A stretch of 16,482 nucleotides of DNA from a virus (lineage: Duplodnaviria; Heunggongvirae; Uroviricota; Caudoviricetes). Shown piece by piece: positions 168 through 12,957 of this stretch; within the stretch, counting starts at the first letter, position 1; every line of letters begins with the position of its first letter. The stretch lies in IMG/VR virus record IMGVR_UViG_2671180460_000014; one strand, given 5' to 3'. The position numbers and the translations under genes are program-made. Under the pieces are notes generated by a model. The model was given only the letters and a program-made list of their open reading frames with translations, was not told the origin of the DNA and did no database searches.

Positions 168-554
168 ATGACAAAAGAGCAGATAACTGAACGTTTGCAG
201 GAATTGGCAGTGATTCTGGGGCGTGAAGCAGATATTTCAGGTTCAAAGGCCGATCTGGAGCAGCGCCTGGCGGAATGGGAAGAGGAGGCCGCCGGATTCG
301 ATGGGGAAGGGACAGAACAGGATGATGTGCATGATGAACAGCGTGATGCATCCGGAGGGGATGCCCGTAATGAGGTGTATTCTGAGCGGGGACTCGTTCG
401 GGTGCGCATGCTGAAAACGGCACATATGCCGTCCCGTGATGCGGTGACGGGAAAAATGTTGATGTTCGCCCGGGCCTCCAGTGTTGTGCTGGTTAATGAA
501 GCCGCAGTTCCTGCGTTGCTGGCGGACGGTCTGGCAGAAAAAATCCGGGAGTGA
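168..554 (+). CDS. Lambda FI-like DNA-packaging / head assembly protein
   Basis: ATG at 168 preceded by GGGAGAG. The N-terminus MTKEQITERLQEL... and the acidic middle resemble lambda gpFI (MTKDELIARLRSL...) as I recall it. The ORF-track start at 36 overlaps the upstream gene and terminator, so I place the start at 168. Confidence 0.65.
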   Translation: MTKEQITERLQELAVILGREADISGSKADLEQRLAEWEEEAAGFDGEGTEQDDVHDEQRDASGGDARNEVYSERGLVRVRMLKTAHMPSRDAVTGKMLMFARASSVVLVNEAAVPALLADGLAEKIRE

Positions 555-958
555 TGATGTCCGATAATCTGTTCGATCAGGCCATGAGTGATGCGGATGA
601 CATCATCCTGGAGACGATGGGGACGGAAATCAGCATATATCCGGGGGGCACGGAAAGAAAAATCCGTGCTGTTTTTGATGCCCCGGCAGATAACACCGGG
701 ATGAACACTGGCAGCGGCGAAATTCGTGATACTGCACCGGTGTTATTTACCCGGAGCGCATGGGTTGCCGGACTGAAAAAATATGACAGGGTCATGATCC
801 ACGGCGAACCCTACCAGGTGGTCGATCCTGGCTGGGATGAGTCAGGCACTGCGGGTCATGGTGTGATTACCATTACTCTTGCGCGGGGAGAACCCGGAAG
901 AAGTACACCTGCCGCCCCCGTCCGACCGAGTAAACGTTATGACAGTCAGAGAGCATGA
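554..958 (+). CDS. Lambda FII-like head-tail joining (head completion) protein
   Basis: The DNLFD...MGT...IR.VFD.P pattern matches lambda gpFII from memory. The start overlaps the FI stop (GTG 551 / ATG 554 / ATG 557 all possible). Confidence 0.65.
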   Translation: MMSDNLFDQAMSDADDIILETMGTEISIYPGGTERKIRAVFDAPADNTGMNTGSGEIRDTAPVLFTRSAWVAGLKKYDRVMIHGEPYQVVDPGWDESGTAGHGVITITLARGEPGRSTPAAPVRPSKRYDSQRA

Positions 959-1661
959 ACGAAGCACTGTCCGGCAGCGACGGCTGGCACGAAACCTCGT
1001 CGTCGATATTGACGAGGATGATGTGCTGAAAATTATCGCTAAACTGGGTGGTTCAAAAAGCCAGATCCGTAAAGCCTGGGGCGTGGCGCTGAAAAGAGCC
1101 GCGTCCGCACTGCGGATGAAGGCCATGGCAGAGTTTAAAAAACAGGTTGCGCCACGCAGCCAGAAAATGATCAAAAAACGTGTCCTGAATGCTTTTATCA
1201 TTCGTCGAAATGGCGATGAGTTTGATGAGGTAAAGGTGTGGTTCGGCCTGAACGCTATCAAAGTGCGTGATCTGCGCGGACGCATCAGTGGGGGGCGACG
1301 CGGTGAACGCCATCAGCTGCGTGATGAACGGGGGCGTTTTGCACCGGCTTCCCGTCGCAGGAAAGCGCCGGAGATACGTTTTAAGCCCGCCGGGGAGGCA
1401 ATACCGGTCACCACCTGGTCAGGTGACGAGGCTTTTGTTAATGAGTTTGAGTCTGAAAACCGGCGCGGACGCATTTCACGACGTAAGACGGTACTGGTCC
1501 GGCAGGCATCCGGACGACGAAGGGTGCGCGAAGCGGAAATTGATATTTATGAAGCCATGCTGAACCGTATAGAGGATTTTGTTTTCCCTGATGCGGAAGC
1601 ACTGATCCTGAAAAATTTTGAGCATGAACTGAAATTCCGGGTATTTAAGGGGATGGAATGA
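939..1661 (+). CDS. Hypothetical basic phage structural protein at the head-tail module boundary (possible neck or tail-completion protein)
   Basis: ATG at 939 overlaps the FII-like stop by 20 nt; the stop overlaps the next start (ATGATGG). The protein is very Arg/Lys-rich and I do not recognise a family. Confidence 0.55.
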   Translation: MTVREHERSTVRQRRLARNLVVDIDEDDVLKIIAKLGGSKSQIRKAWGVALKRAASALRMKAMAEFKKQVAPRSQKMIKKRVLNAFIIRRNGDEFDEVKVWFGLNAIKVRDLRGRISGGRRGERHQLRDERGRFAPASRRRKAPEIRFKPAGEAIPVTTWSGDEAFVNEFESENRRGRISRRKTVLVRQASGRRRVREAEIDIYEAMLNRIEDFVFPDAEALILKNFEHELKFRVFKGME

Positions 1662-2224
1662 TGGAACCATTGATGATGGGAACCTGGCATCAGGCAGTGA
1701 TTGACAGTCTGAAACAAATTCCCTGGGTGGAAGATGCCGATGAGTACCCGGAAAAAGTGACGCAACTGGTGACGCCTGCCGTGTTTGTGGATGTACCCGG
1801 CTGGGACAAGGCTCAGTTTGCCGACGGGCAGACACGGGTCACGCTGAAATGCGATCTGTTTGTGGTGACTGATCGGGCCGGAAAGACGGAAAACGTGCCA
1901 AAACCGCAGATATTTGCCCGCTGTCTGGCAATGGATTTATCTGACTGGATTGATGGAGCCACGTTCGGGCTGGATAACGTTGATCCGGCGGTTTTTATTG
2001 ATGCTGAGGTGGATACCTTCGACCGGCTGCTGGACGACTACATCGTTTTCCGTGTCTCTTTTGAACAGGACATTCCGGTCGGCGAAGATCCGTTTGCGGC
2101 TCCGGCAGGTGTGCCGTTACAGGAAGTCTGGCTGGGTAAAGTACCGGAAACCGGTAAAAAGCATGTGCAGGATTATCGTCTTATCTGGAAAGCGGAGGGC
2201 ACCGGCGATGAGTCTGGCGGATGA
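1658..2224 (+). CDS. Hypothetical phage tail-associated protein (possible tail completion/terminator)
   Basis: ATG at 1658 overlaps the upstream stop, and its stop overlaps the gpV start by 17 nt. It occupies the position that R/S tail-completion genes hold upstream of V in P2. Family not recognised. Confidence 0.55.
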   Translation: MMEPLMMGTWHQAVIDSLKQIPWVEDADEYPEKVTQLVTPAVFVDVPGWDKAQFADGQTRVTLKCDLFVVTDRAGKTENVPKPQIFARCLAMDLSDWIDGATFGLDNVDPAVFIDAEVDTFDRLLDDYIVFRVSFEQDIPVGEDPFAAPAGVPLQEVWLGKVPETGKKHVQDYRLIWKAEGTGDESGG

Positions 2225-11206: not shown

Positions 11207-11697
11207 TGATGGTGGATTTTGTTGGCTTTGGCGCAAACATGATTGAGCGCAAGGCATGGGACAGGATTGGTTCATTAACCGATGTGGCCTCGCGGGTCAT
11301 GCTGTCGTTTGGTGAGTTTGAGTTCAGTATTGATTCAGCGGCGTATAACGCCATGAAGCGCACCATGGAATGGCGATGGGATGAGCAGCAGTTAATCGGA
11401 AAAAAGGATCTGCTGCAGTATACCGGTAAGGGAGCCAGAACGATAAGCCTTGAAGGGATGGTTCATGCGGGATTTCGTGACGGTGTGGGGATGGATGCCC
11501 TTGATACGCTGGTTCAGATGGTGGATAAAAATCCTGCGCCGCATCTGCTGGTTTCCGGGACGGGGGATGTGATGGGGTATTTTGTTGTAACCGCCTATTC
11601 AGATAACACCACGTCCTTTCTTCCCGGCGGTGCGCCGAAAAACAAAACGTTCACACTGGAGCTGAAATACTATGGCGAAAAACTGGCGGACCACTGA
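11206..11697 (+). CDS. U: Tail protein, P2 gpU-like
   Basis: Start overlaps the T stop (GTG 11203 or ATG 11206). Size and position match gpU; ...GDVMGYFVVT... resembles the P2 gpU core. Confidence 0.7.
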   Translation: MMVDFVGFGANMIERKAWDRIGSLTDVASRVMLSFGEFEFSIDSAAYNAMKRTMEWRWDEQQLIGKKDLLQYTGKGARTISLEGMVHAGFRDGVGMDALDTLVQMVDKNPAPHLLVSGTGDVMGYFVVTAYSDNTTSFLPGGAPKNKTFTLELKYYGEKLADH

Positions 11698-11890
11698 CGG
11701 CGATATGCTGGATGATATCTGTCAGAGACACTACGGCAGCGCCGGGCTCAACCAGTCACTGGCGGCGGTACTGGAAGCCAATCCCGGGCTGGCTGACCTT
11801 GGTCCGGTGTATCCGTCCGGGGTGGAAATTGTGTTACCGGACTGGACATATGAGCCGGAAGAGAAGGAGACGTTTCAGTTATGGGACTGA
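11672..11890 (+). CDS. X: Tail protein X (LysM-like), P2 gpX-like
   Basis: 72 aa. ...GDMLDDICQRHYG...LEANPGLADLGPVYPSGVEIVLPD... matches P2 gpX (...GDTLDAICVRYYGR...LAANPGLAELGAVLPHGTAVELPD). Overlaps both the U 3' end and the D start. Confidence 0.75.
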   Translation: MAKNWRTTDGDMLDDICQRHYGSAGLNQSLAAVLEANPGLADLGPVYPSGVEIVLPDWTYEPEEKETFQLWD

Positions 11891-12957
11891 ATGAATATCA
11901 GCCGGATTTCAGTCTGACGGTGGAAGGCGAGGATATCACGAAAGCAATAAAACGCGGACTGGCTGAACTGCGTTATACCGATAATGGTGCTGCCACAAAG
12001 CGGACTGATGAGTTAATGATAACGCTGTTCAGTGAAACGCTGGCATTGCCACCGAAAGGCGCAGTATTAACGCTGGGGCTGGGGTTTAACGGACGTCTGG
12101 TGAATAAGGGGAACTTTACTGTCTGTCAGGTGGCAAGCGGTGGCCCTCCCCGCCGGATCACCATTTATGCCACAGCAGCCCCCATGAATGCGTCCAGGCA
12201 TGGTGCAGATGTGACTGCACTGAAAACCCGCGCCTTCAGCGATGTCACGCTGGGTGACCTGGTAAAAACGATCGCCACTGAAAATAATCTGGTGGCGCGG
12301 GTATCTCCGGCACTGGAGAAAATTCGTATTCCGTGGGTGATGCAGTCATCTGAGTCGGATGCGTCCCTGCTTTCCCGGCTTGCAGGGATGTACGGTGCCA
12401 CCAGTAAACCGACGAACGGTTACTGGTTATTTCTGGAGTATGGTGCGTCGCAGAGTACCGGAGGCAGGGATGCCCCTGTGATGACCATCACACCGGATAT
12501 GGTGTCAGACTGGGATTACCGGGAGGGCGATCGGCAGGGGGCATCCGGAGGCGGAAAAGGGGGAAAGGTTGGTGTCAGGTACTTTACTCCGTCTGATGGT
12601 CGTACGCGTGAACTTAAAGTGGATGTGGAGTCCACAGACAAGCGTCATCCCTTCACCCAGCCAGACCAGGGCACGGCAGAACATTGTGCACAGTCGAAGG
12701 TAAAGCGGGTGCAGAAAGCGGGGCGTCAGATGACGATAACGCTGCCCTGCCGACCGGTATTGCTGAAAGCGGGGGCGGAAGTGCGCTTTATCACACGGGG
12801 CTTCGGGGTACGGGAGGACCATAACTGGCAGGCAGAGTCAGTGGAATTTTCGTTGTCACCGGGGCAGGGATTTTCGCTGAATCTGTCGCTGGCCACGGAT
12901 ATTTCTGCAAAGGGGAAAGCCAGTGGCAAGAAAAAAGGCGTCAATTATTTTGGTTAA
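11881..12957 (+). CDS. D: Tail protein gpD-like (late control gene D family)
   Basis: 358 aa in the expected terminal position of the P2 F-operon; N-terminus MGLNEYQPDFSLTVEG... Confidence 0.8.
   Translation: MGLNEYQPDFSLTVEGEDITKAIKRGLAELRYTDNGAATKRTDELMITLFSETLALPPKGAVLTLGLGFNGRLVNKGNFTVCQVASGGPPRRITIYATAAPMNASRHGADVTALKTRAFSDVTLGDLVKTIATENNLVARVSPALEKIRIPWVMQSSESDASLLSRLAGMYGATSKPTNGYWLFLEYGASQSTGGRDAPVMTITPDMVSDWDYREGDRQGASGGGKGGKVGVRYFTPSDGRTRELKVDVESTDKRHPFTQPDQGTAEHCAQSKVKRVQKAGRQMTITLPCRPVLLKAGAEVRFITRGFGVREDHNWQAESVEFSLSPGQGFSLNLSLATDISAKGKASGKKKGVNYFG

Follow-up and report, generated by a model that had tools for sequence, protein, structure and literature searches.

A predicted lambda-type head joined to a P2/R2-pyocin-type contractile tail in a lambdoid prophage of Escherichia coli

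We analysed a stretch of 16,482 nucleotides (nt), hereafter the window, from the IMG/VR virus record IMGVR_UViG_2671180460_000014. Every real gene of the window lies on the plus strand and the genes are closely packed: the 3′ end of a capsid gene is followed by two head genes, two neck genes, a long series of contractile-tail genes and a second fibre cassette, and the right end belongs to the E. coli chromosome. Very probably the window covers the distal end of a late operon belonging to a contractile-tailed lambdoid temperate phage that is integrated in the E. coli gene ydfJ, and the virion genes of this phage most likely form a single Q-dependent late operon. An earlier note on this DNA had read positions 168-12957 as lambda-type head completion genes joined to a P2/R-pyocin-type tail, suggesting a hybrid lineage. 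This stands, with lambda-type genes upstream in relatives, P2 head genes missing from them and a tail matching those of P2 and R2 pyocin. The genes named in its list are there, but the list omits two neck genes (939-1661 and 1673-2224), a second fibre-assembly gene (6490-7023) and a pair of Stf-cassette genes after D.

The left end of the window (1-117) encodes the last 38 amino acids (aa) of a major capsid protein of the lambda gpE type, which are 65% identical to the C-terminus of lambda gpE and show 100% identity to the protein annotated as major capsid protein in a prophage of E. coli C5. Next comes the gene of a gpFI-type DNA-packaging chaperone (168-554), matching PF14000 (E = 1.5e-13) and phrog_92 (4e-32), for which BLAST against lambda FI gave no match. 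The following gene (554-958) encodes a gpFII-type head-closure (stopper) protein matching PF05354 (3e-13), NF049848 and phrog_82. It is 33% identical to lambda gpFII (BLAST, E = 2e-9) and matched the solved structure PDB 1k0h (1.3e-5). Lambda FI and FII themselves fall in phrog_92 and phrog_82, the families of the window proteins, whereas P2 gpL falls in phrog_71, to which no window protein was assigned. The lambda likeness of FI and FII had been claimed in the earlier note, together with a test by which P2-family hits would refute it; the outcome of this test favoured the hybrid.

To identify the type of terminase, portal and capsid, as the note had also proposed, we turned to relatives of the prophage. 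The C5 prophage is 99% identical to window positions 1-13615, and a relative occupies the same ydfJ site in strain 401651. In both, the genes that precede FI are collinear with lambda Nu1-A-W-B-C-D-E. In C5 the proteins are 42% (Nu1), 64% (A), 44% (W), 63% (B), 54% (C), 54% (D) and 59% (E) identical to those of lambda; across C5 and 401651 the values are 42-52% for Nu1, 64-66% for A, 44-49% for W, 62-63% for B, 54-55% for C, 54-59% for D and 59% for E. Collinearity with lambda thus runs from Nu1 to FII, with the gpE end, FI and FII in the window and the rest in the relatives. By tblastn, P2 Q, P, O, N, M, L, R and S gave zero matches in the C5 prophage and strain 401651, and lambda U, V, G and H likewise gave zero matches in both. 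Further upstream, strain 401651 and the Stx2k-converting prophage of strain STEC309 (CP041435) carry RusA, the Q antiterminator and lysis genes, and in neither does a second set of tail genes come after the lambda-type head. The full context given by the relatives shows that the organisation of the phage is lambdoid, and the head module, of which only the gpE end, FI and FII lie in the window, is predicted to be of the lambda type. A P2-family identity of the head completion genes was rejected, given the lambda-type PHROGs of FI and FII and the lack of matches to P2 head genes in the relatives.

The two neck genes that had been overlooked lie between FII and V. The first (939-1661) matches phrog_27 over the whole length of the profile (3.9e-26). 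This family, described as 'tail completion or Neck1', includes lambda gpZ (3e-69), whereas P2 gpS falls in phrog_26 and P2 gpR in phrog_65. The profile points to a neck or tail-completion protein (Ne1) of the lambda gpZ family, placed after FII as in lambda. Searches of this protein gave no match in Pfam, nothing by BLAST, and no match in a fold search that used a poor AlphaFold 2 (AF2) model (predicted local distance difference test, pLDDT, of 60). The second gene (1673-2224) encodes a protein of phrog_1072, a family with no function assigned in PHROG, and its AF2 model (pLDDT 69) has the R2-pyocin collar PA0615 as its best Foldseek match (4e-7), followed by the Mu terminator (3e-5) and T5 p142; several other tail terminators and lambda gpU were also matched. 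Furthermore, a profile built from its homologues matches PA0615 (E = 0.0019). Profile and model together identify it as a probable tail terminator (collar) protein. When both neck proteins were aligned by hhalign to the single sequences of lambda Z and U and P2 R and S, nothing was found, and BLAST likewise gave nothing. In the connector categories of PHROG, the neck is of the 'type 1' stopper/terminator kind, with phrog_82 (Hc1), phrog_27 (Ne1/Tc) and the terminator fold in the window, and the set is completed by a gpW-type adaptor found in the relatives.

From 2208 to 12957 the tail genes run V-W-J-I-H-G-(second G)-sheath-tube-E/E′-T-U-X-D. They were assigned through P2-type Pfam, NCBIfam or PHROG profiles, and identities were obtained by BLAST against P2 proteins. 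V, W, J, I, the sheath, the tube, U, X and D are 23-48% identical to their P2 counterparts; the C-terminal half of H and both copies of G also match P2 proteins, which brings the overall range to 23-57%, and no P2 match was found by BLAST for E and T. The order from V to D is that of P2, as the earlier note had it. The genes lie where it had placed them, and their matches to the families go well beyond what chance would give.

The gpV-type central spike (2208-2831) matches TIGR01644 (phage_P2_V, 2e-22) and the P2 gpV structure 3qr8 (2.6e-13), is 28% identical to P2 gpV and carries an H-D-H motif at its C-terminus. It is followed by a gpW/gp25-type sheath initiator (2866-3222; PF04965, 4.5e-15; 38% identical to P2 gpW; PA0617, 3e-15) and by two baseplate wedge proteins, one of gpJ type (3197-4111; PF04865, 1e-22; 40% identical to P2 gpJ; PA0618, 9.5e-54) and one of gpI type (4104-4685; PF09684, Tail_P2_I, 4e-38; 36% identical to P2 gpI; PA0619, 2.8e-17). 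The gpH-type tail fibre (4695-5921) has an N-terminal PF12571 domain, and its last 200 aa are 57% identical to the C-terminus of P2 gpH. Two tail-fibre assembly genes follow in tandem (5935-6462 and 6490-7023), both matching PF02413 and phrog_136; STEC309 has both copies and C5 has one, lacking that at 6490-7023. Across the C-terminus of the fibre and the two assembly genes (5000-7000) G+C falls to 0.41-0.48, which fits an exchanged host-range cassette.

The tail sheath (7080-8555, 491 aa) matches PF04984 and PF17482, is 37% identical to P2 FI over residues 146-483 and matches PA0622 over residues 148-487 (1e-51). It is about 100 residues longer than the sheaths of P2 and R2 pyocin. Because the alignments to both begin near residue 146-148, the protein likely carries an extra N-proximal domain. 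The tail tube (8552-9070) matches the tube FII family PF04985 (4e-22) and PA0623 (2e-12). The tail assembly chaperone E (9131-9433; PF10109, 3e-11) contains a slippery heptamer, T_TTT_TTG (9391-9397), after which an open -1 frame extends the product to an E+E′ protein of 146 aa (9131-9570) whose end overlaps the start of T, an arrangement also annotated for P2. The protein encoded at 9551-11206 (551 aa) would be the tape measure T, judging from its position between E/E′ and U, its match to phrog_3654 (1.5e-202) and weak matches to tape-measure PHROGs; it has no Pfam match. The last three genes of the series encode a gpU-type tube initiator (11206-11697; PF06995, P2_GpU, 2.8e-29; 32% identical to P2 gpU; PA0626, 7e-15), a gpX-type LysM 'glue' protein (11672-11890; PF05489, 1.3e-19; 48% identical to P2 gpX; PA0627, 8.5e-7) and a gpD-type baseplate hub (11881-12957; phrog_52, 1.5e-91; 37% identical to P2 gpD). 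The latter also matches the R2-pyocin hub chain 6u5h_C (8e-17), which we take to be PA0628.

Comparison with the R2 pyocin gave full correspondence in gene order. Positions 1673-12957 are collinear, gene for gene, with PA0615-PA0628, from the collar or terminator to the hub and including U-X-D; the order collar-spike-W-J-I-fibre-chaperone-sheath-tube-E-T-U-X-D of R-type pyocins is found entire. Plain single-sequence search matched PA0617, PA0618, PA0619, PA0622, PA0623, PA0626, PA0627 and 6u5h_C (the sheath PA0622 in a separate search), and PA0615 was matched only through profile and fold. The order of the locus tags is taken from PMC1250226 and PMC10811340, and the latter describes PA0626 as the tube-domain central piece of the baseplate ('Ripcord' in the PDB entry), PA0627 as a LysM protein and PA0628 as the hub. 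Genes for head, packaging and neck (FII, Z) are lacking from the R2 pyocin, whereas in the window the capsid end, FI, FII and Z stand directly upstream in the same operon. Contrary to a tailocin, which lacks capsid, packaging and head-tail joining genes, the relatives of the window hold full head sets.

The position of X sets the window apart from P2. In the P2 record X lies after L and before the lysis genes, and U abuts D; in the window X (11672-11890) lies between U and D. Both points had been made in the earlier note, which compared this position to phiCTX and R-type pyocin clusters. The comparison holds for R2 pyocin (PA0626/PA0627/PA0628) and fails for phiCTX, in whose record X (orf8) lies after L and before the lysis genes, with U (orf26) abutting D (orf27), as in P2. 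phiCTX was therefore rejected as a model for the position of X. An X gene adjoining U and D is also usual in most contractile injection systems, P2 and phiCTX being exceptions.

P2 and the window share the V-to-D order and the same T_TTT_TTG-type -1 frameshift leading from E to E+E′. They differ in that P2 head genes, gpR and gpS family members, fun(Z), orf30 and ogr are all absent here; moreover, the tape measure of P2 has 815 aa against 551 aa here, and its sheath 396 aa against 491 aa. Peduoviridae share six genes, encoding the large and small terminase subunits (P and M, respectively), portal Q, scaffold O, capsid N and completion protein L (bioRxiv 10.64898/2026.09.14.750843, from which we also take the roles of P2 gpR, gpU, gpX and gpD). 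None of the six was found in the relatives tested, and the capsid end in the window is gpE-like. Their tail set and order, V-W-J-I-H-G and FI-FII-E-E′-T-U-D, is present; the R and S completion genes and an X between L and the lysis genes are not.

Lambda, for its part, has the same order Nu1-A-W-B-C-D-E-FI-FII-Z, with FI and Z alike at the level of families (phrog_92 and phrog_27), and the relatives also share its lambdoid Q, RusA and lysis genes. The lambda tail (U, V, G and H were compared, and M, L, K, I and J were not) is replaced here by contractile-tail genes. Lambda gpU belongs to phrog_37, and the protein found at the position of gpU in the window is the putative terminator of phrog_1072. 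The non-contractile tail of Lambdavirus is thus absent, and the window encodes sheath, tube and baseplate proteins instead. With P2 and R2 pyocin as the compared set, which included no Mu record, the tail is classed from its sequence as a P2/R2-pyocin-type contractile tail, and the whole appears to be a true mosaic of this tail and a lambda-type head.

This mosaic is not confined to one prophage. Of 5,426 complete E. coli genomes, 73 contain the block from FI to I (coverage of at least 80%), with identities that lie mostly between 85 and 92%, and several of the 73 are Shiga toxin-producing E. coli (STEC) strains from animals and food. The lineage is stable and widespread, and not a one-off hybrid. 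The STEC309 prophage has 87% DNA identity over 82% of the window and the same gene set; it differs in lying at dusA, not at ydfJ, and in carrying the stx2k A and B genes between Q and the lysis genes (3839-5079 of its locus, L008). It is among the Stx2k prophages that have been described epidemiologically (PMC9431244). Among isolated phages, Hafnia phage yong2 (MZ516527) and Citrobacter phage Chris1 (ON041214) come closest, and both are lambdoid (cI/cII, RusA, antiterminator). They share the FII-Z-terminator-V neck and the U-X-D order, with sheaths 61-62%, terminators 49-53% and Z proteins 42% identical to those of the window. Their heads differ, with a fused protease/capsid gene and a terminase just 24% identical to lambda A, and their tail blocks are permuted (V / sheath to D / W-J-I-H-G). 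The RefSeq annotation of the C5 and 401651 prophages already names gpFI, a head-tail joining protein and tail protein X, and lambdoid phages with contractile tails, some Stx phages included, are acknowledged (PMC8065619). Our search of the literature on lambda-like heads with P2-like tails, on yong2 and on the morphology of Stx2k phages found no explicit description of this virion type. The lineage being already sequenced and fairly common, the mosaic is ordinary and not surprising.

A scan of viral contigs (IMG/VR) with the terminator family allowed us to locate the joint between head and tail. It yielded 51 loci, which read Z-terminator-V-W-J-I-sheath-tube-E-T-U-X-D as far as the contig extends, save in three distant cases: in two, extra genes separate the terminator from V, and one breaks off after the terminator. 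Two kinds of head precede this series: a lambda type (A-B-C-D-E, with or without a recognisable FI, then FII), and a yong2 type, in which FII follows a fused protease/capsid gene and both the terminase and the portal are different. The sub-lineage with yong2-like tails includes heads of both kinds. Among window-like tails, the yong2-type head was found in one contig, L027. Its terminase and capsid are 79% and 71% identical to those of yong2, and its FII is 43% identical to that of the window. On the other hand, its Z (90%), terminator (95%), J (93%) and sheath (88%) are close to those of the window. DNA similarity between L027 and the window (87%) begins at window position 873, within the final 90 bases of FII, which places the recombination joint at 873-958, in the 3′ end of FII before the Z-family gene. 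With the breakpoint at 873, FII therefore goes with the head, and Z and everything downstream with the tail. The joint thus appears, from the sequences compared, to be FII|Z and not FII|V; the boundary between FII and V implied by the earlier note is too far downstream.

A broader reading is possible and we advance it tentatively, as one that has slightly more against it than for it. FII|Z would be a recurrent and precise recombination joint, at which one contractile-tail cassette, with a gpZ-family protein as its first gene product, pairs interchangeably with two unrelated capsid systems (lambda-type and fused protease/capsid type); gpZ would belong to the tail side, the contact between FII and the terminator would be a near-universal plug, and some Stx2k prophages would have a virion type not described in the literature searched. 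If so, the partner of gpZ would be the terminator or the tape measure, rather than the type of tube. Several points weigh against our main interpretation, a lambda-type head on a contractile tail in one phage. The gpZ assignment comes from one PHROG profile, with Pfam, BLAST, hhalign against lambda Z and the fold search all blank, and confidence in the terminator model is only moderate at its pLDDT of 69. No virion has been seen for this prophage, and we infer both its contractile morphology and the docking of FII on the terminator. Finally, the terminase, the portal and most of the capsid gene lie outside the window, and the type of the head rests on the 99%-identical relative and on the 38-aa gpE end.

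A further possibility is that two unrelated elements lie side by side, a lambdoid head remnant and a P2-like remnant or R-type tailocin, with an accidental junction between them and no single functional virion gene set. Against this, all genes are co-oriented and either closely packed or overlapping, and the junction contains neither an integrase nor an att site nor a regulatory block. It is also kept in 73 complete genomes and dozens of viral contigs. The viable isolates yong2 and Chris1 have the same FII-Z-terminator-V neck with one head and one tail set, and the relatives have no second tail gene set behind the lambda-type head. We hence consider this arrangement very unlikely, even if prophage regions of E. 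coli are often composite, the C5 prophage is itself abutted by a Mu-like prophage and an inverted fibre region, and the collinearity with R2 pyocin is complete.

The tail could also be better called Mu/SfV-type than P2/R-pyocin-type, Mu/SfV-type tails being a known contractile kind on lambdoid phages. The model of the terminator does match that of Mu (3e-5), and in yong2 and Chris1 the sheath block precedes the W-J-I-H-G baseplate block; in Mu, too, the sheath block stands ahead of the baseplate block. However, in comparisons that included no Mu record, the proteins of the window match P2-specific families and chains of the R2 pyocin, its gene order is that of P2 and R2 pyocin, and X stands as a small gene of its own, which is also the case in P2 and the pyocin, so that we see little chance of this name being the better one. 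Least probable is a conventional P2-like (Peduoviridae) prophage with P2-family head completion genes, which has in its favour a tail in P2 order and families named after P2 (TIGR01644, PF09684, PF06995), and against it FI and FII in lambda families and not in phrog_71, a capsid end 65% identical to lambda gpE, an X gene away from its P2 position and the failure of P2 Q, P, O, N, M, L, R and S to match in the 99%-identical relative.

For a mosaic of lambda-type head and P2/R2-pyocin-type tail, the roles of the families suggest that heads and tails would be built separately. The portal, the gpW adaptor and the FII stopper ring would close the filled lambda-type head. The D hub, V spike, U tube initiator, X glue, W sheath initiator and J and I wedges would form the base from which the tail is built, and T and the E/E′ chaperones would determine how long it becomes; we give these parts such roles because they are so described for P2 and R2 pyocin (bioRxiv 10.64898/2026.09.14.750843; PMC10811340). 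A hexamer of the 1673-2224 protein would then cap tube and sheath and present a docking surface for FII. This stopper-terminator interface may be generic to lambda-type and many contractile tails, and the head module would be swappable at the neck because contractile and non-contractile tail terminators share one fold.

The prophage would offer a clean natural case of head/tail module exchange, with the joint mapped to about 100 bases. That a putative member of the gpZ family would function with a contractile tail is relevant to the role of gpZ, which is still poorly understood, and the modelled fold would give a tail-terminator role to the functionally unannotated phrog_1072. Some Stx2k-converting prophages carry this predicted virion type, which may affect host range and detection. 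Current views are not overturned: contractile-tailed mosaics among lambdoid phages are known, and the databases already contain close relatives.

Downstream of D lies a second fibre cassette. An Stf-type fibre (12982-14406) matches PF08400 (2.6e-56) and is 43% identical to the N-terminus of lambda Stf (orf-401). The gene after it (14411-14977) encodes a DUF4376 protein matching PF14301, and phrog_1141 is also among the matches of the pair (12982-14977). The pair is present in STEC309 and absent in strain 401651. The predicted virion would carry two fibre types on a P2-type baseplate.

The right end of the window is E. coli chromosome, with chromosomal similarity from 15057 on. It holds ydfJ truncated at its 5′ end (15199-16482, plus strand), 100% identical to the ydfJ pseudogene of strain 401651, which is annotated without its N-terminus. 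The border between prophage and chromosome lies upstream of 15199. No integrase is encoded in the stretch (14978-15198) that separates the final phage gene from the truncated ydfJ, although the corresponding end of the STEC309 relative carries DinI together with an integrase. A search of the phage collection at the DNA level matched only the ydfJ flank and fragments of the fibres.

In C5, a Mu-like transposable prophage (MuA, MuB, DUF3164 and a repressor; L001, 1-8021) adjoins the region upstream of the terminase genes, and on the other side (L001, 30421-33754) an Stf N-terminal domain comes before an inverted partial copy and the tail genes of a different prophage. These features point to an insertion and to a rearrangement mediated by the fibre. 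A three-way hybrid of Mu, lambda and P2, suspected from C5, was rejected: the repressor end of the Mu-like region faces the head genes, which fits a separate inserted prophage, and other relatives (401651 and STEC309) have ordinary lambdoid early and lysis genes.

Directly after the capsid gene, a G+C-rich hairpin of 8 pairs followed by a T run (122-140, plus strand) resembles a terminator and may act as an attenuator or mRNA stabiliser inside the late operon. It is one of four strong G+C hairpins with T runs lying in short intergenic gaps (122-140, 2830-2848, 7041-7062 and 9090-9107), which stand after the capsid gene, V, the second fibre-assembly gene and the tube gene, respectively. Two of the four, those behind V and the fibre-assembly gene, fall at the borders of the tail blocks whose order is changed in yong2 and Chris1. 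Similar hairpins are found in yong2 after V, D and the tube gene, and in Chris1 after V and the tube gene.

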